DNA of 20,826 nt from Candidatus Iainarchaeum sp. (GCA_903916665.1 CAIWXP010000181.1:1-20826), one strand, 5' to 3'. Shown: positions 3,787 through 18,752, counted from the first letter of the stretch. Notes: a model not told the origin generated them from the letters alone. Program-made: numbers and translations.

Positions 3787-6700
3787 TTATTCAAATTCTT
3801 TTTTATTAATAAAATATAAGAACATAATTGTTGCAAATAAACTTGCAAATATTAATAAATATTTTTCATTGCCTTCAAACAAAGGAATATCCCATGCGCC
3901 GGTTTTTCCGTAGGTTGGGGTATCGCTATATATTGGATTTCCGCCCGGTTTTGTTACTCCACCAACATCTACCCAACCATCCGTTGCAAATTTATCACTA
4001 AATGGTAACATTTGAGAATTTCCTACAGTCCATTCTCCTGTTGTTGGATCAAAATAAAATGAACCATTTCTTCCTTGGGCTAATAATAAATCTCCTTTCT
4101 TACCATCAAACGATAACATAGGTCTTCCATTTTCATTACTAAAATCCAATGAATGTGTTACTCCATCTGCAGTTGTAACTTTAAATCCTGTATCCGTTGC
4201 TTCTAAAGATTTAATTTCTGAATCTGAAATTACTTTTCCTGTTTTTTTATCCACAACTTTCATATATTGTTTACATTGACCATTGGTATCTTTTTTTGAG
4301 TAAAACATTATTTGATAATCCGGTGTTTCAAAATATTGGAATGGTCCTGCATTTTGCAATGCTTGATCAAATTTTTCACCAGCTGCTTTTGCAGTAGTAT
4401 CATTTTGATTTCCTAAAACACTTAAATTAAATGCTTGTTCTTCACAACCTGTTGTTGGATTTGTTACTGTCACAGGAGTTGCAGAAAACTTTTGAACATC
4501 TCTTCCATTTATTTGTGCAATTATTCTAATCCACAACATAAAATCTTTTTGTGCAGTTCTATAAATCATCATTCCTTTTTGGAAAGTTACTCCACTAAAT
4601 TCTCCCAAATCTTGTTTATTAATAGAACTAACTAAATGTACTTTTCCATCAATAATTAAACTTTCAGAAATATCCTGTCTTTCTGATGCACCACCCAACA
4701 TTAAAAATGATTTTCCATTTGGATTCATTGTACCTGCTAACTTTGAACTTATTTCTGTAACTAATCCAGTATATTCTATTGGAGTACTATAATTAAATCC
4801 TGTTTGTTCTTTACAACCTGACATAAAACATAGTGTTGTACTTGAATCAATTATTTTAAAATCTCCATTTGGTAATAATTCAAAATAATCTACACCTAAA
4901 TCTGCGGGAATAAATGTTGCACTATGAGGTATTTCGTAGCCTCCAAATATTCCATTTCTTGCAGTCATAGCTACTAATTCACTATCTAATATTACATTAC
5001 CATCAACACTAATTGTATTATTATTTTTATCAATGGCTATACAACTTGTTTTTGAATTTTGATCTTTACCACAGGCAACTATTAAACTTTTATCTTCTCC
5101 TGTTTGACCACACATTGCTCTTGGCCCTATCCAAGTTAAGAATAATGCGCCAGTATCATATTTTCCTGAGGCATCATTTTTTGTAGTATAATGTATTTGC
5201 ATAAATTCTTTTTGTTTATCATCAACCAAGCCCATTAATTTATCTTTAATTTCACTTATTGCACTATCTACTTTACTCAATGCAGTATCAGGGCTAGGTG
5301 CTGTTGTACCTGTTCCCCCCTTTGAAACTAAAGTATCTAAAACACCTTGTTTTTGTGGAGATGCATCTTCAAATTTATGAACATAATGTATATAATATCC
5401 TTCTTCACTATCTACACAATCTTGGAAATGAGTCATAACTTGATCATCAATTAAATAGGTTCCTAAACCACCTGCAATTACTCCCATAACTGGGAAAAAT
5501 GCTGCAGCAACATAAAATATTGTGTTATCAATTATACCCATAGCTAAACCAATTCTTGCAGAATTATTCTGGAAATAATTATCCAATACCGGCATGGTTC
5601 CAAACACAGATGATTTTATTTTATCAAAACAAGTTTCTTTTGCAGCAATTGCTTCTTCAATATTAATACTATCATTAATTTTATTTTGTGCACTTGAACT
5701 AGTTAAATTAAAATCTATATTTGTGTGATGTGTAAATACTGCCAAACTTAATCCTTGTGATGCTGTTTTTGCATCAGGCAATTCTAAAAGATAATTAGTT
5801 GTATCATTTTTTGCAATTGTTGTTATTGTAATTCTATTTCCTGGACTTATTTTTCTTGATGTTGTACAATCAGGACAATTATTCATTGTTCCCGTATAAT
5901 AAACTACATCTTTAATATCTGTTCTTGTTTTTACACCCATAAAATTTAATACATTTTTTTCTAATTCTTTTGTTGGGATTATTGCACCTATTGCTTTTCC
6001 TAAATTTGCAACAAATAATTCACCAAAAAAATCACCACTAGAAAATTCTTCATTTGCAAAAAAATCAATATATGCATCATTGTAGGTTGCACCAGTACCA
6101 TGCCAAATTGTAACATTACTCATATCTCTATTTCCAACAAAATATGCTTTAAACGGAGAATCATCACTTGTTTTTACCATCCAATATGTTTGTGGGCCCA
6201 ATAATTTCATTACCAATGCTTTTCCAGGATCACTTGATAATGTATATTTTTCATTGTAAATTAACCATTGCATAGCATTCCAATATTTTGCATCTACTAC
6301 TCCTTGATCTTTCATAGTTTGCAATAAATCCAATGATCTGCCTTCTAAAGCATCTGCACTACTTTGTCCTTGATCAATAAAAGCGGCTTGCATATCTTTA
6401 ATAAATTTTGCCTGTTCATCTGGACTCAATTGAACATGAGTTCCACTATCATAAACATTTACACTTGTTTGGCCACCTAATTTTCCTTTTATTGAAGTTG
6501 CTGTTGATCCATTTAACGCTTCATCAACACCATTTATACTAACAATAAATTCTTTACCTGGATTTGCTTTAACAAAATCTTCTAAATCCTTAACAACTAC
6601 TGCTTGGAACTTAGACTTATCAACAGTGCCCAATCTAAAAATATCCAATTCTCCTCTAAGTGCTCTTTCTCTTACTGCTTTTTCAGATAATTGAGTATAG

Positions 6701-8127
6701 GTTAAAACACCTTTTGCATCCTGTGCATAATATCCACTATATTTCAAACCTTTTTTTTCAAAAAATAAATCCATTACAGAAAATCCCATGGCTTGAGATG
6801 TTTTATCCTGTTTAATTAAAATATCTATTGCTGCAGATGTATCCGATGAATTTGTTAATGCTTTTAATTCTGCAGATAAAGATCTACCAAAAGAATTTTT
6901 AGTTTCTAAATATTTTACAAATGCTTGTCTTTTTGCAGGATCATCCAATCCTTTTTTTATTGCATCCCATGATTGTCTTAATTTATCTGCACTACTTTCA
7001 GAAAATGCTTTTTCCAAATCTTTTATTTTTGTTGCATCGGCACCTAAAATTCCTGCGCTTCTAACTTCATTTGATGCATTAATTGCTGCTTTTTCATAGC
7101 CCCCGCTTTTTAAAATATATTTTGAAGCTCCTAATTGTGCAGACAATCTATCGGTCATATCTACTAAACTTTTTGGTGCTAATTTTTTAAATGCTCTTTG
7201 ACTTAATCCATAAATACCAGGACCTGCTGTTGCAACTAATAATGATCCAGAATAGGTACTATTATAATATTTGTTAAAAAAAGAATAAATATAAATTTTA
7301 CATCTATCTGGTGCATCACTACCAGTACAAATATCTTGGAATTCAACATTAAAACCTTGGGCCATAATATGATTTTTAATTAATACATCTGATTTTACTC
7401 TTCCAGGAACATCGCTGTTAACATCAACAAATAAATTTGAATCTTTCAAATCATTGATATCCACATTTGGTCTTGGTTCTTTTAAATTAGATTGTGCTAA
7501 AAATGCATCTTCATTTTTCTTTGCAATTTCTGGTGCTATTTTCTTTGTAAAATCACTGGATAATGCATCTGAACTAAACAGACCCATAAATGTTCTTTTT
7601 GCCAATTGATAACCTGTTACTCCATTTGAAAATGCCAAAGCATTATCATAAACACTACAAATTTTTGGATCTCTTACAGTACCTTCACATCTACCTAAAC
7701 GCATTGTTGTATTTAAAACCATTCCAACAGCATAATCCCCTTTACAGGTTTCTGAAAGTTTAGTATCTTTTGCATCGGCCCCTTCAAAATTACATTTCAA
7801 ATTTACTGCAGCTCCCATGGGACTATTTTTTTCAATAACATTTATTGTTGGACAATTTTTATCTGCCCCCTTTGCAAGAGCATCTGCTGCTGCCGCATTT
7901 GCATCTTTGGCCAAAGCAGCATCTCCCGATCGCATTTCACTGGGTTTAATACCCTTAAATAAAAAATTATCCCAGATACTTTGTACCTGTTGTGGTGTCA
8001 AAGTAACTGTTCTACAGGCGCCCAATAGACAAAGATCAGATTTACAAACAGAGCTTGAATCAGAATATATAAATCCAAAACTTGCAAATAATATTAAAAA
8101 TAAAGGTAATAAATAAATAAATTTCAT
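3787..8127 (-). CDS. Giant secreted, C-terminally membrane-anchored, Cys-rich surface protein, 1,446 aa, no recognisable domain
   Basis: Start moved to ATG 8127 (MKFIYLLPLFLILFASFGFIYS, a signal peptide). The track start at 8175 would overlap the upstream gene. The protein has many paired Cys residues, many N-x-S/T sequons, and a C-terminal TM YLLIFASLFATIMFLYFI followed by NKKEFE. Confidence 0.85.
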   Translation of the reverse strand: MKFIYLLPLFLILFASFGFIYSDSSSVCKSDLCLLGACRTVTLTPQQVQSIWDNFLFKGIKPSEMRSGDAALAKDANAAAADALAKGADKNCPTINVIEKNSPMGAAVNLKCNFEGADAKDTKLSETCKGDYAVGMVLNTTMRLGRCEGTVRDPKICSVYDNALAFSNGVTGYQLAKRTFMGLFSSDALSSDFTKKIAPEIAKKNEDAFLAQSNLKEPRPNVDINDLKDSNLFVDVNSDVPGRVKSDVLIKNHIMAQGFNVEFQDICTGSDAPDRCKIYIYSFFNKYYNSTYSGSLLVATAGPGIYGLSQRAFKKLAPKSLVDMTDRLSAQLGASKYILKSGGYEKAAINASNEVRSAGILGADATKIKDLEKAFSESSADKLRQSWDAIKKGLDDPAKRQAFVKYLETKNSFGRSLSAELKALTNSSDTSAAIDILIKQDKTSQAMGFSVMDLFFEKKGLKYSGYYAQDAKGVLTYTQLSEKAVRERALRGELDIFRLGTVDKSKFQAVVVKDLEDFVKANPGKEFIVSINGVDEALNGSTATSIKGKLGGQTSVNVYDSGTHVQLSPDEQAKFIKDMQAAFIDQGQSSADALEGRSLDLLQTMKDQGVVDAKYWNAMQWLIYNEKYTLSSDPGKALVMKLLGPQTYWMVKTSDDSPFKAYFVGNRDMSNVTIWHGTGATYNDAYIDFFANEEFSSGDFFGELFVANLGKAIGAIIPTKELEKNVLNFMGVKTRTDIKDVVYYTGTMNNCPDCTTSRKISPGNRITITTIAKNDTTNYLLELPDAKTASQGLSLAVFTHHTNIDFNLTSSSAQNKINDSINIEEAIAAKETCFDKIKSSVFGTMPVLDNYFQNNSARIGLAMGIIDNTIFYVAAAFFPVMGVIAGGLGTYLIDDQVMTHFQDCVDSEEGYYIHYVHKFEDASPQKQGVLDTLVSKGGTGTTAPSPDTALSKVDSAISEIKDKLMGLVDDKQKEFMQIHYTTKNDASGKYDTGALFLTWIGPRAMCGQTGEDKSLIVACGKDQNSKTSCIAIDKNNNTISVDGNVILDSELVAMTARNGIFGGYEIPHSATFIPADLGVDYFELLPNGDFKIIDSSTTLCFMSGCKEQTGFNYSTPIEYTGLVTEISSKLAGTMNPNGKSFLMLGGASERQDISESLIIDGKVHLVSSINKQDLGEFSGVTFQKGMMIYRTAQKDFMLWIRIIAQINGRDVQKFSATPVTVTNPTTGCEEQAFNLSVLGNQNDTTAKAAGEKFDQALQNAGPFQYFETPDYQIMFYSKKDTNGQCKQYMKVVDKKTGKVISDSEIKSLEATDTGFKVTTADGVTHSLDFSNENGRPMLSFDGKKGDLLLAQGRNGSFYFDPTTGEWTVGNSQMLPFSDKFATDGWVDVGGVTKPGGNPIYSDTPTYGKTGAWDIPLFEGNEKYLLIFASLFATIMFLYFINKKEFE
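3808..3861 (-). other. C-terminal transmembrane anchor of the 1,446-aa protein
   Basis: An 18-residue hydrophobic run followed by the short charged tail NKKEFE and the stop. Confidence 0.7.
5449..5559 (-). other. Internal hydrophobic segment of the 1,446-aa protein
   Basis: ARIGLAMGIIDNTIFYVAAAFFPVMGVIAGGLGTYLI (track-ORF aa 873-909). It is flanked on both sides by Cys- and sequon-containing sequence that looks extracellular. Confidence 0.6.
8062..8127 (-). other. Signal peptide of the 1,446-aa protein
   Basis: MKFIYLLPLFLILFASFGFIYS-DSSS: a basic n-region, a hydrophobic core and a small-residue cleavage-like site. Confidence 0.7.
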
Positions 8128-8135
8128 GCCAATCA

Positions 8136-8633
8136 CTAAAACCAAATCATTGTTAATATGCCACCAGGTATCCACGGAAATATCGTTCCCAAAGAAATTA
8201 ATATAACCGATATAATAAACATTGTTAATAATACATTAAATAAACCTAACTTAAATTTAAATTTATTCATTAAATAGGACCCTAAAAATATAAATAATTG
8301 TGCAAAAACAGTAACAATTAAGGCATATAATAGGAATTGGCCTATTAAATATAAAATAAATAATACAATATCAGGAGCATTTTGATAGCCTGTTAAAGGA
8401 AGTAAACCCAAAAAACTAGGCAGAAAATAAATTAAAGGCACCAATATTAACATTAAAATATAGGTAGAAATCAATGCAGATATGTTCCAACTTAGTTTTT
8501 TATTAAAAACTTTAAATAATAAATAGGTAGGATAGTATAAAATAGTTAAAATAACCATTAAAATTAAGGAGTACAATAATACGCTTCCTATTGTATATAA
8601 TATTGTATATAATAGTGTATTTACCTCTGCCAT
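8136..8633 (-). CDS. Small polytopic membrane protein (~5 TM), 165 aa, family unrecognised
   Basis: Almost entirely hydrophobic L/I/Y/F-rich helices. Its TAG stop lies 8 nt upstream of the giant gene's ATG, which suggests translational coupling. A TATA box lies 25 nt upstream of its ATG. Confidence 0.75.
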   Translation of the reverse strand: MAEVNTLLYTILYTIGSVLLYSLILMVILTILYYPTYLLFKVFNKKLSWNISALISTYILMLILVPLIYFLPSFLGLLPLTGYQNAPDIVLFILYLIGQFLLYALIVTVFAQLFIFLGSYLMNKFKFKLGLFNVLLTMFIISVILISLGTIFPWIPGGILTMIWF

Positions 8634-8682: not shown

Positions 8683-9822
8683 ATGGCTATTAAAGAAATT
8701 GATAAATTAGTAGATATTTTATCTAAACAAAAAGATAAATACTCTGAGAAACAGATAAAAAATGCAATTTTAGCAGAAGGATATTCTGAGGATATGGCCA
8801 AGGACGTTTTAGCAAAAATCTATGCCAAGGATCAAAAACAAGAAGTTCCAATAGTAACAAAACAAGCTTCTAGATCCAGTGAAAGAGAAAAAGTAAAAAC
8901 AGACGAAATTAAATCTCAAGAACCAATAAAAGAAATTCCAAAAGAAGTTCCGCCAGCAATAAAACAAAATACTGATTATTATTCTGAAGTAAATTTATTG
9001 ATAGATCAATTAAAAGAAATAAACAAAGTAAAAAAAATGGATATTAGTACGCCTAATTTATTAAAAGATAACGAAATAATAACAACACAAAATAATAATT
9101 TACAAACTAATAACTTACAAAATAATTCTTCATCACAAATTAATTCCAATGATGTTAATCAACAAATAGAATTTAAAAAACAAGAATTAGCAAAAATAAA
9201 AATTGAAACAGAAGATGATGTAAAAATAATTATTAAAGATGGAACTATAATTAATTTAAACGATTATCCAAGAAGAGAATGGAGATCCTATAGAGATCAA
9301 GGAAAAAGTGTTGCAGAAAATAAAGAAGAACAAATGCAAAAAATAAGAATGGAAATTTATGCATTAAAAAGACAATCTGGAAGATCCCAAGAAGTTACAC
9401 AGGAAGAAAATATTTCAAAAAAGATTTCAGATAGAGTACGATTAAAAACAGGAAATAGAGTTCCTGAAAAAAGAATTGAAATTGCATCAAAAAACGAAGC
9501 CGAAAAATTAAGAGAAAAATATAAAAGTGAAGAAATAGAAAGAAAAGATTTAGATACTGCTGTTGAAAATATTTACACACAAATGATGAAAAATCCAAAT
9601 ATTTATGATGATGATAAAACATCAGAAAATACTAATTCACAAACTAATCAAACACAAAAACAAGAAAATAAAACCGCATCACAAAAAACAGATGAATTAA
9701 ATGATATGAGTTTAGATACTAATTTTAATTTGGATTCAAATAATTCAAATGATAATTCTGGAAATGGAGAATTTGATTTGGGTTTGGATTTAAGTTTAGA
9801 TGATAAAAAGAAGAAAAAATAA
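8683..9822 (+). CDS. Low-complexity K/E/N/Q-rich, probably disordered protein, 379 aa
   Basis: Complete ORF ATG..TAA. It has a short helical N-terminal module (IKNAILAEGYSEDMAKDVLAKIYA), then charged low-complexity sequence. The C-terminus is an acidic N/D/S-rich stretch ending GEFDLGLDLSLDDKKKKK. No TM segment or signal peptide. Confidence 0.65.
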   Translation: MAIKEIDKLVDILSKQKDKYSEKQIKNAILAEGYSEDMAKDVLAKIYAKDQKQEVPIVTKQASRSSEREKVKTDEIKSQEPIKEIPKEVPPAIKQNTDYYSEVNLLIDQLKEINKVKKMDISTPNLLKDNEIITTQNNNLQTNNLQNNSSSQINSNDVNQQIEFKKQELAKIKIETEDDVKIIIKDGTIINLNDYPRREWRSYRDQGKSVAENKEEQMQKIRMEIYALKRQSGRSQEVTQEENISKKISDRVRLKTGNRVPEKRIEIASKNEAEKLREKYKSEEIERKDLDTAVENIYTQMMKNPNIYDDDKTSENTNSQTNQTQKQENKTASQKTDELNDMSLDTNFNLDSNNSNDNSGNGEFDLGLDLSLDDKKKKK

Positions 9823-9844: not shown

Positions 9845-12800
9845 CTATGCAGTTTCTGTTGTACTTGGTGTTCTTAATGCTGCAATAAATGGGGTATTAC
9901 CTCTTGCTAATCTATGATCTGACAAACCTATTGCGGCCCAATCAAAACCAGGTAATGGATCATTTTTATTTCCATTTAATTCAAAATGTGCAACAACAGT
10001 TTTATCACTAACTTCTTTTAAAATATTTCTACTTTTTAAATTAGCCAATAAATTTTTTATTGCAACATGTTGTTCACTAGTATAGGGTTTTCCAGTATGT
10101 TTAAATGTACAATCTCTAATATCAAGACCTATAGAATAGGCATTTATTGATGAAAAAATACAAGTACTATCTGATGAACTACAACCAGCATGATTTGCGA
10201 CTTGACTTTCTGGAACAAAATTAAATATTGTTCCATCACAACCAACAAAATAATGTGATGAAACATTTAATCCTGCTGATTTCCACATTGTTAAAACAGC
10301 TTTTGCTGCACAGCTTTCATTGCTACCACAACTTTCCCAACCAGCACCGTCATGCAATACTACAAAACCAAATGCTTTTCTTGTATTACTATAATTTCCT
10401 TTTACTAAATCACCGTCATAGTAGGTTGAATTTAAAGCTATACCACCCAATGGTGCAGCACCTGAATTTAACATTAAATATTTTGATAATTCTGGACCTA
10501 ATTTATCTGAACTCAAACCAGAACTTGCAATGGGACCTGAATTTGAATCAGCACAGGCAACCCCATAACCTGTTTCTTTTGTTCTATATTGATTAACATA
10601 ATTTTTCACATTATTAATATATGCAACAGGACTATTTCCACCATCTCCTGCGGGCGCATAGATTGGAATTATTTGTTCCAAAGTATATTTTCCATCTTTC
10701 AAATAATGACTACTATTAGTAATATAATTATACCAACCTTTTATTGAATTTTCATAATTATCATAGGCACTCCATGCTCTATCTGTATTATATTTTGAAT
10801 CTGGCAATGCAATGTCAGTATAAACTATGTTTCCAATTCCTTTTGTTTTAACTGCAACACCTGCTTTTCCGTAGCCTGATTCTTGTCTAAAAAAAGCCAA
10901 TGCAAATGCAGGATCTATACCATATTGAACACCATATTTTACAAAATATTGACCACTACCTGCAGCAGGAGATCCTGCATCAGATAATATTTTATCAATT
11001 GTTTGTGCAGATAAAGAGGGCCCACCATTTATTCTTATATCAGATAATTCTGATGATGCTTTTACACAGGTAGAGCCAGATCCAGTACTTCCTGTTGAAG
11101 GATTTAAAGTATCTCTAGCAATGTATCCTTTGGTTGAATTTTCTAATTTACAAAATCCTAAAACATTGCTTGCATCTGTTGGTGTTATTACTGCGCTATA
11201 ACTTCCTGGACCACTATTTGTAACAATCATAACATAGCTTTGTTGTTTTACAAAAGTGTCTGGTAAAGTTATATCCATATTTAGTGCACCTTTTATTTCA
11301 CTGCTCATTGTTGCTGTCCAAACATTCTTATAGGTTAAAGTTGCAGCTTCTGCACTAATTACTCCTTTCAATAATCCTCTAAACATTTGTCCCCATCTTG
11401 AGTTTGCACTTAATTTCATTTTTTCCCAAGTTGATGACGGTGACAATGCACTTGCTGCATCTCCTAAATCTGTTGCAACTGTTTTTTTTGCAGCATCCAA
11501 TGCGGCATTCTTTGCAACTAATTCTGCATCTAATACTGCTGGTTTTGCTAATTCTGTTTCCAATGCAGTATATTTTGTTACTACTGCATCAAATTTTACT
11601 TTTTCTGCAGCAGTTAATGCTTTTATTTCAGTATCATAGGCGCCAGCTTTAAAATCAGCCCATTTAAAACTAGCCACTTTATTTCCACTTGCTGCGCTAT
11701 TCAAAACTCCTCTTGCACTATTTGCTTGAGAACCCATATTTGAAGTAATATCTCCAGCTACTCTTAATCCTGCTTTTTCTGTTGTTAATGTTTCAATTTC
11801 TGTTGTTAATTTAGCAACATCTTTTACTGATGTATTACCTGCTGTTGCTGCTAAATCTTTTATACTTTGTTGTTGCAAATCTGTTAATCCAACTTTAGTG
11901 TAAAAGTCTACAGCACTCATATTTTTCTTTGTAGCAATAGCACTTAAATTTTTATAGGCTTTTTCAAATCTAGGACTTGCACTTCTTAATGTTTTAAACA
12001 TTGTTGCTTCATCAGTAAATTTAGTAGGATCTAATTTTCCTGCAGTTACAGCTTCTGATAATGCGTCACTAAATTCTGTTACTGCATCTCTTTCAACTGC
12101 AGTTACTATCGCAGGTGATTTGTCAACAACAAATTGTTTTGCACCCTGCGGAACTGCTGTTGCAGCACCCAATGCAGCAGCACCACTATAACTTAAAGTA
12201 TCCTGTAAATTTTGTGCAGCTTTAGCAGGATCAGAATCTCCTGCGCCTTTTACTTTTTCATAGTCATCAAAAGCCCAACCAGTTAATGCAAAATTACTCA
12301 ATGCATCATGTACTGAATCATACCAAGCATGATCTGATCCTGGCAACCCCATTGCAACACTATTTCTATGATTTGCATAGGCACTAGTTGTTACTAAATC
12401 ACCCACAGTTAAACCACAGGTAAATAATGCCATACCCCAACTCCAAGGTCCCAAAACAGATTTTATACTTGTTAATCCTTCAGCAGCCATACATGCACCA
12501 AATGCTGCACCACCAGCTATTGCAGTTGCTTTCCAAAATTGACTATTAATTGTACTTGATAATGGTGCTAAATTACTTCCACTACATACTCCACTTGATG
12601 GTGTATGTCCTGTAATAAAAGGTGCTCCTTTTTTCTTATCCACAACTTCTTTGAAAACTTCACAACCATCTTTACTTGTGTTGCCACCTTGCCAATAGGT
12701 TTGTGCAAAATAATTTTTATTTTTCAATTCAGATGTTGAAACATTCATAACAAACATATAGGGTTCTACACCACAGGATTCAAAAGAAATTTTTTCAGAT

Positions 12801-15800
12801 TTTTCATCTCCATTAATTGGTTTTAAAATTAATTTTAATGGATCTGATTTACTATATTCAATTGCTTTACTTGGATCTGTAAAATTAATTTCTAAAATAT
12901 ATTCTTTTGATTGTCCACTAACAAAATTTACTGTTGAAACATTTGTTTCACTTTCATCAATTATTCTTGTAGTATAACCTTGAGGATTTGTAGGCTCAGT
13001 TAATAATTCTGCAGACCCTGCAGTTGGTCCAACAACAGAAAATTTAATTTGTTCTTTTCCAAATCCTGCTTTTACAGTTTTTTGTGCAACAGTTAAACCA
13101 TATTGTCCTGTTCTATCATCCGTTGCAGAAACAATTTGTGCTCCTTTATTATCTGAAGTTATACAACCAATATAGGCACCTTTCAAAAATGATTCAATTA
13201 ATTTAATTGCATCTTCTTTCTTATCTCTTACATCTATTGATTTATCTAAAGTAATAACTATTTGAGGAGTATCATCTGAACTTATTTTTGCTTCCATTGG
13301 ATGATTATTTAGAGTACCTCTTGTCAAATATAATGTATTTGCTTTTCCAGTAGCTAATCTTTCTTGACTAAATAATCTTTTTGAAACTTCTTTTGCAAAA
13401 GTATCATAGCTTCCTCTTAATGCAGTATCAAAATCTGTATAGGCTTGCATAAAACCATAGGTGTTTTCAACCGTTGATTTTGAATCCTTTGGTAAATATA
13501 ATGCACTATTTTGTATTTCTAAAGCACATTCTGGAGTTGCTTCATAGTCTGCTCTAATTAATACATTATAATAATCTTTTTGCATTACTCCATCTCTAAT
13601 TCCAAATGCACCTTCAAAACTAATTGTGTATTTTCCACATCTATTAATTTCTGAATCTACAAATAATCTATTAAACTGTGCTACACTTTGTTTTTCAATA
13701 TCAAAATTCTTTGTTGGTAAATAACTCACATCTTTTATTTCTTTTAATGAAGCTTGTAATATTTCTTTCAAATAACCTTCACCACTAATTGTATCATGCA
13801 TTAAATACATTGTAACGGGAGTCATTTCAACACCTATTTTTGCAAATGCACAACTCTGAGAACTTACATCGCAGGTTGTTGTTTTTATATTTTTTGTATA
13901 TTTTGATGCAATTGTTTTATAATTATTTACAAAACCAGTAATCTTACTTTGTAAAAATGTTGCAGCATCTTGACCATTACAATAATTTTGGGCACAGTCT
14001 GATCCAACCTTTGGTATTTTAACCATTTTCTTTGTTGTTTGACCACAGATACCAAATTCTTTTTCATCATAGGGAACTTTTTCATTTGATTGAGCAGCTC
14101 TACCTAAAACAAAATTAAAATTTAAATTCACACTATACTGTGTTCCTGTATTTTGTCCCTTTGCTAAAAATAAAATATTTTCCGCAGAATTCATTTCTTC
14201 GCCAGCATATAATGTTGATTTAACTTCCATTGTTTGTTTTGGTTGGATGGTAGTATTTTCAACGGTTATATTCAATTTAGTTTTATCTCTTATTGCTTTG
14301 TAAATTGGCATTTGTAATAATAGTGGTTCTGCACATTCATTTGTAATTGATATGTTTTTATTTTCCAATGTAACATCTAATTTTCCACTTCTAAAATATA
14401 TTTCATTGGTTGGAACATTTAATTTAAAACATTTGGGTGCAGAAACTGTAAAAAATATTGGAGTAACTGCAGTAACTGGTTTATTATCTATTGCACTGAA
14501 TGCAGATACTTTAACTGTTACAGCACTAACTACATTTGATTGTTGTATTCCCGGACCTTTTATTGTTAATTGTGACATTGCACTTTGATTAGGGTATAAT
14601 ACTGCAATTGTTCTTGGATTTGGAATTACTTGCGTATTAACAAATGTTTGACCACTGGTACCATTTGGATTCCATGAACTGGTTGGATTTATACTTGCAT
14701 CATACTGTGTTTGAGAATCACTTTGAGTTCTTACCTGCGGACCATTTAATGTTGGATTATAATATTCAGATTGTGGTGCATCACTATATGGCACACCTGC
14801 AGTATAGGGTGTTTGATTATAGGGCTGAGTCATAACTGTTATATTTCTCAATGGTACAGCACCTAAATTTGAAATAAATAATGGCATGGTTACATATTGC
14901 CCAGATGTTAAAGTTAATTGTGGATTTGATACACTAATTTGCATTGCTCCAAAACTATGTGTTAATTGTATATGCGTTGGAATTTGTTTCTTAAAAAAGC
15001 CTGTATCAATATTTACAAATGCCTCTATTTGTAATCCTTGAGCAGGCACTTCTGCTGTTGGTGATATTGTAAAACTTATTGTTTTAATTAACCCTTTATT
15101 TAGACTTACACTTGTACTTGAAAATGTTAAAATACTTATTAAACTATTATCATCTCTTAATATTAAATTAGGAGCTAAATTTACAAAATCTTCTTCACAT
15201 CTATTTTCTAAAGTTAGGTTTGCAGTATATTTTTCTTGCTGCGCATCAAAAAGATTTACTGCAATTTCATTAGGCGTTACTACTAAACAATCAGATTCTA
15301 AATCTGTATTTGAAATAAATGATAAATGTATTATTTGTCTTACTATTTCATTGCCATTTATTGTTCCGCTAATTACTAAATCTTGGTCACCATAAACTAC
15401 CTGTGGAGAATCAACGGTTACACTAACTAATAATTTTGTTGTTGATTGTGGCAATAAATTTGTTTTAATATATTTATAATTAACAACAAATGCTTTGGCA
15501 TCATCTCTTAATACTTGAAAACCTAAATTAGTAACTGGAAAATTTGATATGTTTGAAACATCAATTTCATAATCTCTTTGTAATTTTCCCTGTGGAATTC
15601 TAATTTCATGTTCTGTTTGAACACTTAAAACACCAAATCTAGAAACTATAAAACTACCTCTCGCAGTTACGTGTTGTGATGCTCTAACTTCATAGTTATA
15701 AACACCCGAAGGTAATGCATTTATTACATAGGATCCATTGGCACCTTTCTCATTTGTATTATCTCCTTTTAATAATACATTTGTAGTTCCATTATCTTCA

Positions 15801-18637
15801 TTAATACTTATTATTGCGCTACCTACTTTTCCCTGTGCATCAGAAACATTAAATATAACTGGTTTTCCAAATTCAATCATACCTTCAGAATTCAAAGTAA
15901 CATTTAAATTTTTCTGACCATCAATTCTAAAATCTAAATTTTTATTTATTCCTATTAAAGAACTTAAAAAAGATATGTTTCCATTACCTAATTTATTTGC
16001 TGTAAAATAAACTCTAAATTTTTTATGTTCATTTGCATTTAATATTAAATTATAACTTAAAGAATCTAAATTTCCATCCTTAGGATTAAAATTTATTACA
16101 TCATCATCACTATTATTAAATGATGTTGTTTTCAATAAACTATTTGAATTAAAATCTAGATTTGTAGATATTGCGTTTTTTGAAAAGAAATCAAAATCTA
16201 TTGCATAGGTTTCTCCCAATACTGCAGAAAAATCAGTATATTTAATATAGCCATCTGTAAAACTATAGGAATAGCAAACATCTGAAATATTTGAACATTC
16301 AAACAAACTTGAAAATACATTTATTTCTTCTGATTTTGATTCTGCATGTAATTTCTTCAATTTAGAATCCTGTGTAGTAATGGTTGATTTTGGATCACTG
16401 TTATATTCTTTTCCATCAAAAGAAGTTACTCTATAGTACATTAATAATTTATTTAAATCTAAAGCATTAGAAATATTTACTTTAACTTTTAATTCTGTTA
16501 AACCTTTGGGATTATTATAAATTATATTAACCCATTTATTTCTTATTCCTGCTCTACCAAATATTTGTAAATCTTTTATATTACTTTCATCAGAATTTTC
16601 AGTATAATACAAACCATATTCTTTTCCTACACTTGAAATTGAGTCTGCACCTAATATTGCATATTGCATTGATATTCCAGAAACATCCGGTTCTCCTAAA
16701 CGTACATTAACAGTTCCACTAGTTTGATCTTTTGGCCAAATAACTGAATATTTAAAATAATAGGTAGAATCTAATTTTACTCCATTTAATTTATTTCCAA
16801 AAGCATCATAAACACCTAAAAATGATATTTTGGGTTCCTTTGAAATATCTAAAGGACTTAATGTTATTTCCATTTTATCCGCAACAGTTACTTGTTTAGT
16901 ATAAACATTATCTTGACTATCCACAATTGTAACTTCTACTTCTTTTGCAGAACCAGGATAAAATTGTAAACTACCTTTTTCATTTGTGTTTCCATCAAAA
17001 AGAGTTTCTGTTTCTGTTTTAACGTTTACCTTTGCACCAATTAATGGTAAACCATTTATTCCATAAATATAAAGAGTACTTGTTTTTTGAACTGGTAATA
17101 AAGTTATTTCTATTTTATTATCTCCAGAAATTAATGGAGCTGTTTGTGTTCCAAATAATTCTTGAGTTGCAATATTTACTTTAATGGTTATATTTGGTTC
17201 TAACATTGCAGTGTATAATCCAGTTATTGAAGTTTTATTATCTGGGTAATATAATGGTAATTCTTTTTCATTATCCATTTGATAAATATCTACTATTGCA
17301 TTGGGAACTGGTTTATTATCTTTTGTTGCTGCAAAAATATTTGTTCTTGCGGCAGTCTTTAAATCAATTCTTTTTAAAGTTAATTCAACTGATCCAAAAT
17401 CTTTTTCTGAAACTACTTTTGATGTTGGATAATAATCTCCAATGGCATAGGCCGAAACAACATTGGCTCTTTTAATATCAATTCCAGAAAATTCTGCAAG
17501 ACCATAAACATCCGTTGTTTTTGTATCAATAATTAAACCATTGTCAGAATAAACTGCAACCGTTGCACCAGTTAAATTATTTTTTGCTTCATCTTTAACA
17601 ACAACACTTAATTTTGAACCACCAATTTCAAAATAAACATTTACTGTTTCTGTATTTGATCTCAATGTAATATTTTTATTTGTATCTTGAGAATCAAAGG
17701 TAACAAAACCATCCTTTGAAACAACATATCTTAATGGAATTCCTTTTGTAACATTGATTGGTACTTTTCCTTCTGCATCCGTAACTTCTTCTGCAACAGG
17801 AGATTTTGTTGTTGCATTATAAACTGTTATTTTTGCATTTTCAATGGGCTGTGAAAGAGCAGAAACAATAAAAGTTATTGTGCCCTGTTCACCAAATGAA
17901 ATTTCCTTTGGTTCCAATTTCATATCAACGGTTTCATTTTGATTTGGAACAAATGGCTGTGATAATTCTAAATAACCTTCTTTATCTGCAACTATTTTCA
18001 AAGTTGATCCTAAAGGCATATTTGTTAATTGTAACATTCCCGAATCATCGGTTTTTCCAGAAAATAATAATTGATCATCGGTATCAAAAACATTTACATC
18101 TGCACCAGAAATAACTGTTTGAGTACCATTATCTAAAAATCTTAATTGAACTGAACCCAAAGGAATATCTTTTTCAAAAACTAAATTTAATGTTTTTGTG
18201 CCAGAATCTGCAGTAAAAGTACTATCTGAAGTTAATTTATAACCTGTTAATTGAGTTCCTATTGTAACTAGATCTCCTTTTGACAAACCAGCTACATCAA
18301 TGGTTGCTCCAGTTTTTACTGTTCCTGTATATACTTGGACTTGACCCACACTTAATGTTAAAAATATAGGATCATTTATGGGACTGTTTCCAGAATCAAC
18401 CATATTCACAGTTAAAGCTAGAGAAAATTTGAAAATTATGGTAACTAACAAAACAATAATTACAATCAATAATAAAACTAAAAATATTGAAAACCAATGG
18501 CTGGGGATTCCATGACTCTCTAAAAATTCATTATATTTGTTTATTGGAATTCCTTTATTACTTAAGAATTCACTCATTCCCTGATACTTTTCCTGTACTT
18601 TTTCGTTTATTTTCGCAAAAAAATCCCCAATTCCCAT
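9845..18637 (-). CDS. Giant N-terminally anchored surface protein, 2,930 aa: beta-sandwich stalk, hydrophobic hairpin, helical region, GH73-type glucosaminidase and Amidase_2 murein amidase
   Basis: Uninterrupted 8.8-kb ORF (ATG 18637, TAG stop). Domain evidence is given in the sub-features below. Confidence 0.9.
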   Translation of the reverse strand: MGIGDFFAKINEKVQEKYQGMSEFLSNKGIPINKYNEFLESHGIPSHWFSIFLVLLLIVIIVLLVTIIFKFSLALTVNMVDSGNSPINDPIFLTLSVGQVQVYTGTVKTGATIDVAGLSKGDLVTIGTQLTGYKLTSDSTFTADSGTKTLNLVFEKDIPLGSVQLRFLDNGTQTVISGADVNVFDTDDQLLFSGKTDDSGMLQLTNMPLGSTLKIVADKEGYLELSQPFVPNQNETVDMKLEPKEISFGEQGTITFIVSALSQPIENAKITVYNATTKSPVAEEVTDAEGKVPINVTKGIPLRYVVSKDGFVTFDSQDTNKNITLRSNTETVNVYFEIGGSKLSVVVKDEAKNNLTGATVAVYSDNGLIIDTKTTDVYGLAEFSGIDIKRANVVSAYAIGDYYPTSKVVSEKDFGSVELTLKRIDLKTAARTNIFAATKDNKPVPNAIVDIYQMDNEKELPLYYPDNKTSITGLYTAMLEPNITIKVNIATQELFGTQTAPLISGDNKIEITLLPVQKTSTLYIYGINGLPLIGAKVNVKTETETLFDGNTNEKGSLQFYPGSAKEVEVTIVDSQDNVYTKQVTVADKMEITLSPLDISKEPKISFLGVYDAFGNKLNGVKLDSTYYFKYSVIWPKDQTSGTVNVRLGEPDVSGISMQYAILGADSISSVGKEYGLYYTENSDESNIKDLQIFGRAGIRNKWVNIIYNNPKGLTELKVKVNISNALDLNKLLMYYRVTSFDGKEYNSDPKSTITTQDSKLKKLHAESKSEEINVFSSLFECSNISDVCYSYSFTDGYIKYTDFSAVLGETYAIDFDFFSKNAISTNLDFNSNSLLKTTSFNNSDDDVINFNPKDGNLDSLSYNLILNANEHKKFRVYFTANKLGNGNISFLSSLIGINKNLDFRIDGQKNLNVTLNSEGMIEFGKPVIFNVSDAQGKVGSAIISINEDNGTTNVLLKGDNTNEKGANGSYVINALPSGVYNYEVRASQHVTARGSFIVSRFGVLSVQTEHEIRIPQGKLQRDYEIDVSNISNFPVTNLGFQVLRDDAKAFVVNYKYIKTNLLPQSTTKLLVSVTVDSPQVVYGDQDLVISGTINGNEIVRQIIHLSFISNTDLESDCLVVTPNEIAVNLFDAQQEKYTANLTLENRCEEDFVNLAPNLILRDDNSLISILTFSSTSVSLNKGLIKTISFTISPTAEVPAQGLQIEAFVNIDTGFFKKQIPTHIQLTHSFGAMQISVSNPQLTLTSGQYVTMPLFISNLGAVPLRNITVMTQPYNQTPYTAGVPYSDAPQSEYYNPTLNGPQVRTQSDSQTQYDASINPTSSWNPNGTSGQTFVNTQVIPNPRTIAVLYPNQSAMSQLTIKGPGIQQSNVVSAVTVKVSAFSAIDNKPVTAVTPIFFTVSAPKCFKLNVPTNEIYFRSGKLDVTLENKNISITNECAEPLLLQMPIYKAIRDKTKLNITVENTTIQPKQTMEVKSTLYAGEEMNSAENILFLAKGQNTGTQYSVNLNFNFVLGRAAQSNEKVPYDEKEFGICGQTTKKMVKIPKVGSDCAQNYCNGQDAATFLQSKITGFVNNYKTIASKYTKNIKTTTCDVSSQSCAFAKIGVEMTPVTMYLMHDTISGEGYLKEILQASLKEIKDVSYLPTKNFDIEKQSVAQFNRLFVDSEINRCGKYTISFEGAFGIRDGVMQKDYYNVLIRADYEATPECALEIQNSALYLPKDSKSTVENTYGFMQAYTDFDTALRGSYDTFAKEVSKRLFSQERLATGKANTLYLTRGTLNNHPMEAKISSDDTPQIVITLDKSIDVRDKKEDAIKLIESFLKGAYIGCITSDNKGAQIVSATDDRTGQYGLTVAQKTVKAGFGKEQIKFSVVGPTAGSAELLTEPTNPQGYTTRIIDESETNVSTVNFVSGQSKEYILEINFTDPSKAIEYSKSDPLKLILKPINGDEKSEKISFESCGVEPYMFVMNVSTSELKNKNYFAQTYWQGGNTSKDGCEVFKEVVDKKKGAPFITGHTPSSGVCSGSNLAPLSSTINSQFWKATAIAGGAAFGACMAAEGLTSIKSVLGPWSWGMALFTCGLTVGDLVTTSAYANHRNSVAMGLPGSDHAWYDSVHDALSNFALTGWAFDDYEKVKGAGDSDPAKAAQNLQDTLSYSGAAALGAATAVPQGAKQFVVDKSPAIVTAVERDAVTEFSDALSEAVTAGKLDPTKFTDEATMFKTLRSASPRFEKAYKNLSAIATKKNMSAVDFYTKVGLTDLQQQSIKDLAATAGNTSVKDVAKLTTEIETLTTEKAGLRVAGDITSNMGSQANSARGVLNSAASGNKVASFKWADFKAGAYDTEIKALTAAEKVKFDAVVTKYTALETELAKPAVLDAELVAKNAALDAAKKTVATDLGDAASALSPSSTWEKMKLSANSRWGQMFRGLLKGVISAEAATLTYKNVWTATMSSEIKGALNMDITLPDTFVKQQSYVMIVTNSGPGSYSAVITPTDASNVLGFCKLENSTKGYIARDTLNPSTGSTGSGSTCVKASSELSDIRINGGPSLSAQTIDKILSDAGSPAAGSGQYFVKYGVQYGIDPAFALAFFRQESGYGKAGVAVKTKGIGNIVYTDIALPDSKYNTDRAWSAYDNYENSIKGWYNYITNSSHYLKDGKYTLEQIIPIYAPAGDGGNSPVAYINNVKNYVNQYRTKETGYGVACADSNSGPIASSGLSSDKLGPELSKYLMLNSGAAPLGGIALNSTYYDGDLVKGNYSNTRKAFGFVVLHDGAGWESCGSNESCAAKAVLTMWKSAGLNVSSHYFVGCDGTIFNFVPESQVANHAGCSSSDSTCIFSSINAYSIGLDIRDCTFKHTGKPYTSEQHVAIKNLLANLKSRNILKEVSDKTVVAHFELNGNKNDPLPGFDWAAIGLSDHRLARGNTPFIAALRTPSTTETA
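9923..10369 (-). other. Amidase_2 (PGRP/T7-lysozyme-type) N-acetylmuramoyl-L-alanine amidase domain (aa ~2757-2905)
   Basis: GFVVLHDGAG...SSHYFVGCDGTIFNFVPESQVANHAG...NAYSIGLDI...YTSEQHVAIKNLLANL...VVAHFELNGNKNDPLPGFDW. The His, His and Asp zinc-ligand positions and the conserved Lys appear to be present. Confidence 0.8.
10583..11014 (-). other. GH73/FlgJ-type endo-beta-N-acetylglucosaminidase-like domain (aa ~2542-2685)
   Basis: GIDPAFALAFFRQESGYGKAGVAVKTKGIGNI...WSAYDNYENSIKGWYNYI...YAPAGDGGN. Compare the family pattern (I/L)xPxxxxAQAxLESGWGxSxLAxxxNNxFGIK...Y. The catalytic Glu codon is at 10880-10882. Confidence 0.7.
12374..12535 (-). other. Gly/Ala-rich hydrophobic helical hairpin inside the 2,930-aa protein (aa ~2035-2088)
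   Basis: WKATAIAGGAAFGACMAAEGLTSIKSVLGPWSWGMALFTCGLTVGDLVTTSAYA: two ~20-aa weakly hydrophobic segments joined by a short turn. Confidence 0.55.
15638..15895 (-). other. Additional carboxypeptidase-regulatory-like beta-sandwich domain (aa ~915-1000)
   Basis: GKPVIFNVSDAQGKVGSAIISINEDNGTTNVLLKGDNTNEKGANGSYVINALPSGVYNYEVRASQHVTARGSFIV. Confidence 0.6.
16838..18406 (-). repeat. About six tandem ~80-90-aa carboxypeptidase-regulatory/PEGA-like beta-sandwich domains (protein-level repeats)
   Basis: The pattern recurs in GADVNVFDTDDQLLFSGKTDDSGMLQLTNMPLGSTLKIVADKEGY, AKITVYNATTKSPVAEEVTDAEGKVPINVTKGIPLRYVVSKDGF, ATVAVYSDNGLIIDTKTTDVYGLAEFSGI and AKVNVKTETETLFDGNTNEKGSLQFYPGSAKEVEVTIV. Confidence 0.65.
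18425..18499 (-). other. Signal-anchor TM helix of the 2,930-aa protein
   Basis: HWFSIFLVLLLIVIIVLLVTIIFKF (aa 47-71), preceded by 46 polar residues that carry a duplicated GIP motif (NKGIP...HGIPS). Confidence 0.75.
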
Positions 18638-18650
18638 AAAATTCCCCTTC

Positions 18651-18713: not shown

Positions 18714-18752
18714 AATTAATCCCCTTTGTTAGCTAACTAATAGAATATTACC

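Follow-up and report, generated by a model that had tools for sequence, protein, structure and literature searches.

A probable anchored giant surface protein of Iainarchaeota with an exchangeable C-terminal cassette predicted to act on bacterial murein

According to our analysis, the 2,930-aa protein encoded in the stretch of DNA studied here (the window, 20,826 nt) is probably a surface protein of Iainarchaeota, a group of tiny DPANN archaea, in which an anchored scaffold presents an exchangeable GH73/Amidase_2 cassette with a predicted activity on external bacterial murein. The conserved scaffold consists, in order, of a predicted cytoplasmic N-terminal motif, a transmembrane (TM) anchor, beta-sandwich arrays, a Cys-rich core, a hydrophobic hairpin, a helical region and a small beta module. 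The exchangeable C-terminal cassette follows this module and is represented here by a putative GH73 N-acetylglucosaminidase and then a putative Amidase_2 MurNAc-L-Ala amidase. Acting together on bacterial peptidoglycan, the two enzymes would cut its glycan strands and remove its stem peptides. Murein is absent from archaea of this group, and since the producer makes none, the substrate would have to be external, namely bacterial walls or wall fragments touching the archaeal surface, where anchoring would hold both the enzymes and their products. Attachment to or attack on live bacteria and feeding on wall material cannot be separated at the sequence level; the scavenging of wall debris or a defence against bacteria would account for it equally well.

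Archaeal host and gene neighbourhood

The protein is encoded by a single ORF on the minus strand (9845..18637, 2,930 aa and the stop codon), as the first-pass annotation had indicated, and its start agrees with the N-termini of the orthologues (MGIGDFF...). A Shine-Dalgarno-like motif, GAAGGGG, can be read 7–13 nt upstream of the ATG (18644..18650, minus strand); therefore the giant gene is not leaderless, contrary to the initial proposal of leaderless promoters at this locus.

The contig is archaeal and chromosomal and belongs to the Iainarchaeota (Diapherotrites, DPANN). The neighbouring Alba and PAC2 genes noticed at first reading were both found, and the syntenic contigs carry genes for a thermosome, archaeal-type ProRS, CysRS and RelA/SpoT. 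The archaeal producer assumed from the outset is borne out by the named relatives, all of which are Diapherotrites/Iainarchaeum MAGs or merely "uncultured archaeon"; the same is true of the named cluster members, and all seven GTDB loci (7/7) are archaeal. A bacterial contig (e.g., of CPR origin), on which the protein would be an ordinary autolysin or adhesin, is favored only by the bacterial ancestry of the tip domains, with Ktedonobacteria among the nearest named GH73 relatives. This explanation is effectively refuted by Alba and PAC2, the thermosome, the archaeal-type ProRS and the archaeal GTDB loci, and we consider it extremely improbable.

Four further genes of the window are syntenic. 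The nearest encodes, in convergent orientation, a low-complexity cytoplasmic protein of 379 aa (8683..9822, plus strand; 356–382 aa in the orthologous loci), for which Pfam/NCBIfam-type searches found no family match. Three others lie on the minus strand: a 165-aa protein with four TM helices (8136..8633), a 1,462-aa protein (3787..8175; 1,459–1,471 aa across loci) that begins with a signal or TM segment, ends in a TM anchor and probably represents another envelope protein of this cluster, and a 263-aa polytopic membrane protein (2964..3755). The N-terminus of the latter, MELGDYFGKVF, resembles MGIGDFFAKIN of the giant protein.

Organization of the scaffold

All features of the giant protein are given below with positions on the minus strand. 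Residues 1–46 (18500..18637) form a conserved, predicted cytoplasmic motif (…EKY-G-S-FL--KGIP---YN-FLE-HGIP), recognized from the invariant columns of alignment A1 and a block alignment. This family signature had no match in Pfam and NCBIfam; its looser pattern matched 39 of 140 sequences and is visible in most of the full-length N-termini listed. It is followed by a single strong TM helix, a signal anchor (aa 47–72, 18422..18499), whose strongly hydrophobic stretch at aa 51–69 (KD19 = 3.76) is the only peak of the protein above 1.3. Hydropathy thus agrees with the early description of about 46 polar residues and one signal-anchor helix. The single N-terminal anchor, together with the invariant Cys residues of the ectodomain, fits a surface protein with the N-terminus inside and the C-terminus outside, and we infer this N-in/C-out topology.

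The anchor leads into an array of CarboxypepD_reg/bMG3-like beta-sandwich domains (aa 75–597, 16847..18415). The PF13620-type hits expected for this part of the stalk were obtained, along with PF11974. Iterative HMM searches resolved four strong repeats (aa 165–240, 254–329, 343–420 and 520–597) and two weak ones (aa 75–151 and 434–490), fewer than the seven or more originally counted.

A family-specific core with conserved Cys follows (aa 598–2020, 12578..16846), defined by the Cys alignment, AF2 and Foldseek. Thirteen of its Cys residues (781, 788, 1117, 1147, 1403, 1435, 1531, 1548, 1553, 1596, 1667, 1704 and 1825) are invariant in 8/8 aligned relatives, as is Cys 2049 of the adjoining hairpin, and the core is probably disulfide-bonded. 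The part that was modelled (aa 1400–2020, model residues 1–620; pLDDT 70–90) is beta-rich with alpha/beta inserts, and Foldseek related it to generic Ig/MG/ASH-like arrays with low TM-scores. The stretch without a Pfam assignment amounts to about 1,900 aa rather than the roughly 1,000 aa estimated earlier, and the sequons described as many do not exceed chance (38 observed versus 33.6 ± 5.2 in shuffles).

Next comes a conserved Gly/Ala-rich hydrophobic helical hairpin (aa 2024–2095, 12353..12568), apparent from the alignment, hydropathy and two AF2 helices (model residues 625–657 and 666–696). Its KD19 maximum is 1.27 here versus 1.5–2.1 in most relatives, where it is TM-like. The hairpin might attach the protein to the membrane a second time or serve in oligomerization; were it membrane-embedded, the preceding 2,000 aa would form a loop and the enzymes would lie about 430 aa from the membrane. 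This interval is made up of a helical region, followed by a small beta module and a linker. The Ala-rich long-helix region (aa 2096–2450, 11288..12352), identified from composition, low-confidence AF2 secondary structure and alignment, is poorly conserved and ends in an amphipathic Gly/Ala helix (aa ~2418–2442). The small beta module (aa 2451–2500, 11138..11287) is conserved (ITLPDxFVKxxxY…NFCxxEN-KGYI), with AF2 strands at model residues 1054–1087 (pLDDT 77–84). We take it as the cassette junction, because similarity to orthologues bearing other tips ends just past it; by sliding identity, similarity to the orthologue P0002 falls off after aa ~2500.

On the original reading, the enzymes would occupy the membrane-distal tip of a stalk of about 2,500 aa and form a contact-dependent device for attachment or attack. 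The long stalk would bring the tip enzymes to a bacterial host or prey, whose sacculus they would open in order to attach, reach the cytoplasm or lyse the cell; in that case the hairpin might enter the membrane of the target. We entertain this reading only tentatively. The position of the enzymes at the very end of an ectodomain of ~2,500 aa, consisting mostly of beta-sandwich domains, speaks for it, but the stalk would become a loop if the hairpin sat in the producer's own membrane, and within the family-specific core the models of the stalk cover aa 1400–2020.

The position of the beta module also bears on a released bacteriolysin, whereby the C-terminal ~400 aa would be cleaved off after the module and diffuse as an antibacterial weapon. 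A conserved junction immediately preceding a variable tip is compatible with such release; on the other hand, no protease site or autoprocessing domain was identified in the protein. Moreover, the Pfam search recognized no cell-wall-binding domain (LysM, SH3b, PG_binding or GW) anywhere in it, which would leave a free enzyme with nothing to hold it on its target. The lack of a wall-binding or adhesin domain likewise weighs against an attack device, and that of a wall-binding domain also against the reading we prefer. Overall, we regard release as quite unlikely.

Predicted murein hydrolases of the tip and their exchange

The first domain of the cassette is a predicted GH73 N-acetylglucosaminidase (aa 2529–2693, 10559..11053) with Glu2586 as the putative catalytic residue. 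The match to PF01832 (aa 2563–2684, profile positions 2–121 of 123, E = 9.6e-5) scored 23.5 bits, under the cut-off of 30.2, so in this respect the original assignment fell short, whereas the predicted fold and the near-invariant Glu2586 upheld it. The AF2 model of aa 2529–2693 has pLDDT >90, and its best Foldseek matches in the PDB are LytB (7pj3, E = 2.7e-5), AtlE, Acp, Ecd09610, Auto, Atl (6fxo) and FlgJ (2zyc). More than 120 homologues were collected, some of them annotated as glucosaminidases. The column of E2586, within FRQESGYG, is nearly invariant in 73 homologues, and this Glu (motif xES/TGxG) aligns to hEtGnG of Clostridium perfringens Acp (5wqw). Judged by the model and the alignments, the GH73 domain of the 2,930-aa protein is real.

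A linker with a conserved amidase N-terminal extension (LGPELSKYL…; aa 2694–2752, 10382..10558) was delimited in alignment A3 and had no Pfam hit to a known wall-binding domain. It is followed by the predicted Amidase_2 domain, a putative MurNAc-L-Ala amidase (aa 2753–2905, 9923..10381; key residues H2762, Y2796, H2816, D2839, H2884, K2891 and D2893). This assignment was confirmed by PF01510 (aa 2758–2895, profile positions 7–130 of 131) with 57.4 bits versus a cut-off of 26; NCBIfam AmpD matched partially at 46 bits, under its cut-off of 143. The closest solved relatives are AmpDh2, AmpD and AmiD (E = 5e-10 with a three-sequence profile). H2884 and D2893 align to the zinc ligands of all three, and K2891 to the corresponding position of AmpD and AmpDh2. 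The His/His/Asp zinc site first described as intact is therefore matched by alignment at these two ligands, while the first His, H2762 (VVLHDGAG), which is invariant in A3 and correctly spaced, is assigned on the strength of its motif and of a Pfam match that begins at profile position 7. In T7 lysozyme, the equivalents of Y2796, H2884, K2891 and D2893 are Tyr, His, Lys and Cys, and its catalytic Lys and Tyr are K128 and Y46. For the amidase, the AF2 model is unreliable (pLDDT <50) because the alignment is shallow; a homologue search with this domain only gave a single match.

The general-base Glu of AmpD-type amidases (sIGiE, Glu116 in AmpD) is replaced by Asp in the window protein (D2839), as it is in the orthologues P0006 and P0129. 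This substitution and the GH73 score under the Pfam cut-off are the grounds for a degenerate tip, in which the hydrolase folds would be lectin-like murein-binding modules or inactive relics on a structural envelope protein; the family's largest tail clusters, which have no recognizable enzyme, point the same way. Against this, the protein has kept Glu2586 as well as its zinc-binding and Lys positions, all of which P0130, P0006 and P0129 share. T7 lysozyme has Cys at the position of the Glu in the AmpD GIE motif and is active without a Glu there, and this too counts against degeneration. In addition, the tip of the window protein shares 48–73% identity with that of P0130, whereas the scaffolds share only 38%, which indicates purifying selection on the tip. 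A degenerate tip consequently appears very unlikely, and we infer that both domains are bona fide murein-hydrolase folds or families with predicted activity.

An exhaustive core-profile search of 1.84 billion proteins yielded a family of 138 representatives (E <= 1e-3). Most are 2,650–3,000 aa long, with the core beginning at aa ~1,360–1,530; the N-terminal motif is shared, and conservation extends to the Cys-rich core and the gene neighbourhood. The window protein displays the features that define the group: a length of ~2,700–2,900 aa, the N-terminal motif with TM helix, the hydrophobic hairpin and the Cys-rich core (aa ~1,400–2,000). The tips found at the same scaffold position are GH73+Amidase_2, SLT+GDSL, SLT+Amidase_2, DUF2272+SLT, SLT alone and GH73 alone. 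SLT occurs in the orthologues P0002–P0006, L008, P0134, P0136 and P0166 (SLT+Amidase_2 in P0006) and was absent from the window protein in the Pfam search. The scaffold of the window protein is nearest to two bearers of SLT+GDSL (52% and 46% identity), and from this nested position it follows that the tip was exchanged at least once. This is a discrete lineage-specific family with an exchangeable C-terminal tip, first recognized here.

The presence of SLT, GDSL/SGNH and DUF2272 at the same position of orthologous scaffolds strengthens the case for murein as the substrate, and bacterial murein would accordingly be the target. A recognizable murein hydrolase tip is carried by about 16–18 of 84 full-length representatives. 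As about 80% of the full-length members have none, murein lysis is an add-on, and the primary role of the scaffold is something else. This rarity of lytic tips counts against a dedicated attack device, while cassette exchange, which diversifies the tip as in polymorphic effector systems, counts in its favor.

The same enzymes could serve nutrient scavenging. Cell-bound hydrolases would digest peptidoglycan debris or dead bacteria and free GlcNAc, MurNAc and peptides beside the transporters of the archaeon. Complete depolymerization needs both an enzyme that cuts glycan and an amidase or esterase, and the membrane anchor would keep the products near the cell. Based on the known chemistry of the families, SLT+Amidase_2 of P0006 would generate anhydro-muropeptides for AmpD-type cleavage, in a recycling-like manner. 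DPANN have also been reported as carbon scavengers (PMC10936187). However, an enzyme that only served feeding would hardly warrant the cost of a 2,500-aa scaffold, no amino-sugar uptake or catabolic genes were found in the 20.8-kb window or the syntenic contigs, and tip exchange resembles an arms race more than metabolism. Scavenging is thus a possibility that we rate as low as contact-dependent attack.

Comparison with known systems and significance

The window protein extends the idea that some DPANN archaea attack or feed on bacteria, which is not new and has already been published (Castelle et al., 2021; Vigneron et al., 2022; Strock et al., 2025). For large murein-lytic proteins of DPANN, a role in binding bacterial hosts or degrading their walls has been suggested by Castelle et al. 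(2021, PMC8204110), Vigneron et al. (2022, PMC9723730) and Zhang et al. (2024, PMC10936187), with the AR20 protein cited in both PMC8204110 and PMC9723730. In Woese- and Pacearchaeota, the role suggested for large proteins with SLT (PMC8204110, PMC9723730) is the same as that of the attack device considered here. Yet Iainarchaeota are not known to associate with bacteria, and this lineage has been described as possibly free-living (PMC10936187). The family fam00969, reported as Woese-/Pacearchaeota-specific (PMC8204110), shares with the window protein a size of ~3,000 aa, a predicted extracellular location, a murein-degrading domain and the functional hypothesis. It differs in its lineage and its SLT domain, whereas the window protein belongs to Iainarchaeota and has the two-enzyme GH73+Amidase_2 tip, SLT being found only in its orthologues. 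The exhaustive core-profile search gave only 138 representatives, and every named one is Diapherotrites/Iainarchaeum or just "uncultured archaeon", which argues that the two families are separate, at least as regards the core. In the literature consulted, we found no account of tips being exchanged on a conserved scaffold.

The secreted modular peptidoglycan hydrolases (PGHs) of archaea described by Strock et al. (2025, PLoS Biol, PMC12352652) likewise have catalytic domains of bacterial type that are shuffled between proteins, and an antibacterial role has been proposed for them. That haloarchaeal PGHs kill a bacterium (PMC12352652), and that stand-alone GH73 and GDSL genes adjoin giant genes in other archaeal contigs, would suit a released bacteriolysin. 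In contrast to these small, patchy and plasmid-biased weapons, the window gene is a giant, conserved, syntenic and chromosomal envelope gene, which speaks against release. The survey required both a catalytic and a wall-binding domain, and would therefore have missed the window protein, in which no binding domain is recognized.

Among bacterial and phage enzymes, the same two catalytic families occur in staphylococcal Atl/AtlE and pneumococcal LytB (GH73) and in AmpD/AmpDh2/AmiD and T7 lysozyme (Amidase_2), with the GH73 fold and Glu and the His/Lys/Asp positions of Amidase_2 in common. The label "Atl-like" initially given to the tip holds for the pair of families; the order is reversed, and wall-binding repeats are lacking. 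Atl is arranged as amidase, repeats and glucosaminidase and is processed into two enzymes, whereas the window protein has GH73, a 59-aa linker and Amidase_2 without repeats. Atl acts on the producer's own murein in division, while the producer here is a murein-less archaeon. Also unlike the Atl/AmpD group, both enzymes here are carried on an archaeal scaffold of 2,500 aa, and Asp takes the place of AmpD Glu116.

Polymorphic effectors (CdiA, Rhs and MAF-type) similarly join a long conserved scaffold and a junction motif to a variable C-terminal cassette that is incongruent with the scaffold. The window protein differs from them in having no TPS, T6SS or T7SS context, and its cassettes are wall hydrolases instead of intracellular toxins, with an N-terminal TM helix as the anchor. 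No cognate immunity gene lies directly downstream, where the neighbour is the convergent conserved 379-aa gene; for an attack device none would be needed, because archaea lack murein. Another likeness, by description, is to the giant "Archaeovorin" proteins of predatory Omnitrophota (West-Roberts et al., 2023, bioRxiv 10.1101/2023.11.21.568195). These too are surface proteins of great size made by ultra-small cells; SLT occurs in some of them, and a role in degrading the walls of other organisms has been proposed. They are bacterial, aimed at archaea or pseudomurein, 10–30 times larger, and have many enzymatic domains along their length rather than at the tip.

To our knowledge, all characterized hosts of DPANN are archaea, and the question of DPANN living on bacteria has so far rested on a few annotated SLT domains. 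The locus adds another phylum to the murein-lytic cases in DPANN, an enzyme pair predicted to act on murein at its glycan as well as at its peptide linkage, and tip swapping among orthologous scaffolds, as one would expect of enzymes directed at a bacterial wall that itself evolves. The last ~400 aa provide a compact testable reagent, and within the 138-representative family the tip type could be correlated with co-occurring bacteria. Since most members have no known enzyme, new domains acting on walls or envelopes may be sought among their unassigned tips.

In its strongest form, the contact-dependent reading holds that Iainarchaeota wield a lineage-wide giant envelope protein against bacteria, with the scaffold presenting the lytic cassette and the hairpin engaging the bacterial membrane; we think this unlikely. 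If it were true, Iainarchaeota would be episymbionts or predators of bacteria, and the protein would represent an archaeal, immunity-free analogue of polymorphic effector systems.

The giant gene, its host and its neighbours

The giant gene (9845–18637, minus strand) is a single ORF encoding 2,930 aa. A GAAGGGG motif lies 7–13 nt upstream of its ATG, which indicates that this gene is not leaderless. The N-terminus matches the orthologues beginning with “MGIGDFF…” residue by residue in the alignment, so the start codon is right. Hydropathy analysis of the whole protein gave one strong transmembrane (TM) helix (aa 51–69, KD19 = 3.76), and the scan found no second KD19 peak above 1.3. Among the homologous proteins, P0009 is a 524-aa fragment identical to the giant protein. 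A 20-codon ORF (MGQLQISFKIIEIMQQSLIK; 18669–18731, minus), with its own Shine-Dalgarno-like AAAGGGG, is located between the giant gene and a PLD/cardiolipin-synthase-like gene (18821–20254, minus) and may be a chance occurrence; tRNA-Gln(TTG) (20397–20471, plus) is found just past the latter gene.

The assignment to an archaeal producer held: the neighbours, the relatives and the syntenic contigs agree. Alba and PAC2 are among the neighbours in the window, and the closest homologue belongs to “Candidatus Diapherotrites archaeon CG08.” A survey of one genome per GTDB species revealed seven loci, all in archaeal MAGs (Diapherotrites, Iainarchaeum or uncultured archaeon), and the named members among 20 further family representatives, one of which is on a 1.05-Mb contig, were all of the same groups. 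The syntenic contigs carry a thermosome, archaeal-type ProRS, CysRS and RelA/SpoT. On these grounds a bacterial source of the contig was rejected, and the conserved synteny with housekeeping genes makes a viral or plasmid origin unlikely.

HMMER, run exhaustively over 1.84 billion representative proteins with a profile of aa 1400–2530, returned only 138 of them at E ≤ 1e-3, including 112 below 1e-30. Most of the 138 are 2,650–3,000 aa long, with the matched core starting at aa ~1,360–1,530, and full-length homologues of the window protein (2,878–2,943 aa) share 35–53% identity with it. Judged from their sequences, the giant proteins form a separate family with one uniform architecture. With few exceptions, the full-length members open with a cytoplasmic motif (…LE-KYY---DFL--KG-P-Y-YNDFLE--G-P) followed by the TM helix; no Pfam or NCBIfam model covers this motif. 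At one locus (L006:2273–23262) three giants of 2,905, 2,675 and >724 aa (the last ending at the contig edge) stand in tandem, each opening with the cytoplasmic “LEDKYY…DEKG-P” motif and a TM helix, so the N-terminal anchor module is common to paralogues with different ectodomains. Another locus, L007, has two giant genes (2,752 and 2,443 aa).

The gene order is kept in two other lineages: the giant gene, a convergent gene for a ~380-aa low-complexity protein, a 165-aa four-TM protein, a ~1,460-aa protein that has a signal sequence and is anchored at its C-terminus, a ~260-aa polytopic protein, and PAC2 (preceded by an extra gene in locus L002), plus Alba where the contig reaches. The neighbours of the giant gene had no NCBIfam match. 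The locus resembles a core cluster of envelope genes rather than a mobile accessory.

In the window, the ~1,460-aa protein has 1,462 aa (3787–8175, minus), an N-terminal signal/TM segment, a C-terminal TM anchor and no family match; in three lineages it is kept beside the giant gene, and it is a candidate for the S-layer or another major envelope protein. With the listed GTG start it overlaps the 165-aa ORF upstream; the real start looks to be an ATG 16 codons downstream (MKFIYLLPLF…). The 263-aa polytopic protein (2964–3755, minus), syntenic in orthologous loci, has a weak DUF4013 match and a start (“MELGDYFGKVF”) resembling that of the giant protein (“MGIGDFFAKIN”). In two distant family loci (L007:701–7021, minus; L010:4011–6326, minus), which come from an uncultured archaeon and from a Ca. 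Iainarchaeum MAG, the giant gene has a T2SSE type II/IV secretion/pilus ATPase gene as its neighbour; an intein containing a LAGLIDADG domain splits the L007 copy. L007 also encodes an 814-aa polytopic membrane protein that Pfam does not match. The 20,826-nt window itself has no T2SSE-type ATPase.

The glucosaminidase and amidase domains

Of the two hydrolases that the first-pass annotation had read at the C-terminus, the glucosaminidase (PF01832) was found there by Pfam, at aa 2563–2684 with the whole profile covered, but below the cut-off (23.5 vs. 30.2 bits). The last 402 aa, used as the query, yielded 235 proteins; the best 120 of these all span the glucosaminidase part, many of them have a PF01832 domain or are annotated as glucosaminidases, and the named ones include Ktedonobacteria, an “archaeon” and Woesearchaeota. 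In a 73-sequence alignment E2586, the Glu of “FRQESGYG,” is nearly invariant. The AF2 model of aa 2529–2693 has pLDDT >90, and its top Foldseek matches in the PDB are without exception GH73 enzymes: LytB, AtlE, C. perfringens Acp, C. difficile Ecd09610, Listeria Auto, the Atl glucosaminidase and FlgJ. We therefore accept this region as GH73, even though its Pfam score lies below the threshold. Outside the giants, the closest GH73 relatives (P0012, P0013 and P0016; 374–387 aa, unnamed or Ktedonobacteraceae-like) have two tandem GH73 domains each.

The Amidase_2 domain (PF01510) was recovered at aa 2758–2895 with 57.4 bits against a cut-off of 26. It is divergent: a search with this domain only returned a single protein, which left the alignment too shallow for a usable AF2 model, and NCBIfam gave only a partial AmpD match for the giant protein. 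A three-sequence profile matched AmpDh2, AmpD, AmpDh3 and AmiD (E = 5e-10 to 1e-7), and H2884, K2891 and D2893 align with the zinc/catalytic residues of these enzymes. An hhalign comparison with T7 lysozyme aligned Y2796, H2816, H2884, K2891 and D2893. As the first zinc His we take H2762, within the invariant “FVVLHDG.” The general-base Glu of AmpD-type enzymes (“sIGiE”) is replaced by Asp2839, and is Asp in two relatives too. Within the amidase domain (aa 2753–2905; window 9923–10381), the Cys at aa 2800, 2819, 2826 and 2843 are invariant in the three-sequence alignment, being conserved in the amidases of two relatives (P0006 and P0129); none is aligned to a Cys of AmpD-type enzymes, and they could represent extra disulfides or a second metal site.

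The ectodomain

Pfam placed CarboxypepD_reg and bMG3 beta-sandwich domains within the first 600 aa, and an iterative HMM built from the family resolved four clear and two weak repeats at aa 75–597; the array described by the first-pass annotation thus stands, with fewer repeats than the “at least 7” claimed. The supposed abundance of N-x-S/T sequons was not borne out (38 observed vs. 33.6 ± 5.2 in shuffles). Fourteen Cys positions of the ectodomain are invariant across eight relatives, which fits an extracellular disulfide-bonded domain.

The AF2 model of the core (aa 1400–2530, eight-sequence alignment) consists of a beta-rich array with alpha/beta inserts (aa 1400–2020, pLDDT 70–90), two ~32-residue helices (aa 2024–2056 and 2065–2095), ~350 aa modelled with low confidence as long helices, and a small beta sheet (aa 2453–2486, pLDDT 77–84). 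Foldseek matched it to generic beta-sandwich arrays (hydin/ASH, alpha-2-macroglobulin, S-layer SbsB, pilins) with query-normalised TM-scores of 0.07–0.13, so the model supports an Ig-like array and nothing more specific.

In the alignment the two helices are a conserved Gly/Ala-rich hydrophobic hairpin with a conserved Cys in each helix. Its hydropathy in the giant protein is 1.27, below TM level, vs. a borderline 1.5–2.1 in most relatives. If the hairpin were inserted in the membrane, both ends would be outside and the first 2,000 aa would be a loop; the enzymes would then be ~430 aa from the membrane, with a stretch of helices, a small conserved beta module and a short linker in between, rather than at the end of the proposed 2,500-aa stalk.

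Exchange of the tip and its possible uses

The position of GH73+Amidase_2 in the window protein is occupied by other modules in its relatives. The same pair was found in P0130 and in P0269 (a 481-aa fragment), whereas P0002–P0005 and locus L008 have SLT and a GDSL/SGNH esterase, P0134 has DUF2272 and SLT, P0136 and P0166 have SLT alone, and P0144 and P0183 have GH73 alone. The fragment P0129 has the end of a GDSL domain, then an amidase. P0006 has SLT and Amidase_2, and a separate 511-aa GDSL-family gene lies directly downstream (L011:9429–10964), so the esterase module is fused or stand-alone depending on the lineage. The C-terminal ~200 aa of P0239 and P0245 show a Cys…His pattern (“HRCARFVTEVSN…THVVLYVG”) that recalls the CHAP and NlpC/P60 peptidases; these tails had no Pfam match at E ≤ 0.05.

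Over the scaffold (aa 1–2000), the window protein is 52% identical to P0002/P0003 and 46% to P0004/P0005, all with SLT+GDSL tips, whereas P0130, with the same tip modules as the window protein, has only 38% identity to it over the scaffold but 48–73% over the tip. The similarity to P0002 drops just past the beta module “ITLPDxFVKxxxY…NFCxxEN-KGYI” (aa ~2451–2500). At least one tip replacement must thus have taken place at this junction.

All recognisable tips come from families known in murein metabolism, which is the strongest sequence-level argument for a murein substrate. GH73, SLT and Amidase_2 act on the beta-1,4 GlcNAc-MurNAc and MurNAc-L-Ala bonds; pseudomurein has neither and was set aside as the target. 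Membership in the Atl family was likewise rejected, because the domain order is reversed and the repeats are absent.

For large DPANN proteins with murein-lytic domains, attachment to bacterial host walls has been proposed (Castelle et al., 2021, PMC8204110) and restated (Vigneron et al., 2022, PMC9723730; Zhang et al., 2024, PMC10936187), and archaeal peptidoglycan hydrolases (PGHs) have been shown experimentally to kill bacteria (Strock et al., 2025, PMC12352652). The survey in the latter study covered only proteins that also had a wall-binding domain, and would therefore exclude the giant protein. The NCBI pipeline names two family members “glucosaminidase domain-containing” and “transglycosylase SLT domain-containing”; in the literature searched, no mention of Diapherotrites together with glucosaminidase was found. 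The concept of DPANN murein-lytic giants directed against bacteria is thus already known; the phylum, the pairing of GH73 with Amidase_2, the scaffold family as defined here and the pattern of tip exchange are new. Overall, what the first-pass annotation observed was largely confirmed; its interpretation was partly supported and is not original.

Most likely, the giant protein is anchored to the cell surface and displays its two enzymes, the glucosaminidase and the MurNAc-L-Ala amidase, to peptidoglycan of external, bacterial origin. Live bacteria, as partners or as prey, could have their wall opened, wall debris could be digested as food, or competitors could be killed, possibly once the tip is released; the sequence fits these three uses equally well in kind. 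Exchange of the tip speaks for an interaction that is antagonistic or host-specific. A classical diffusible weapon is disfavoured, as the scaffold is chromosomal, syntenic and lineage-wide and the protein has no wall-binding domain. A recognisable lytic tip is present in only ~16–18 of the 84 full-length representatives, and in the three largest tail clusters (with 29, 15 and 11 members) the tip is either missing or without a Pfam match. In this family murein lysis is therefore an add-on, and the scaffold has another basic role.
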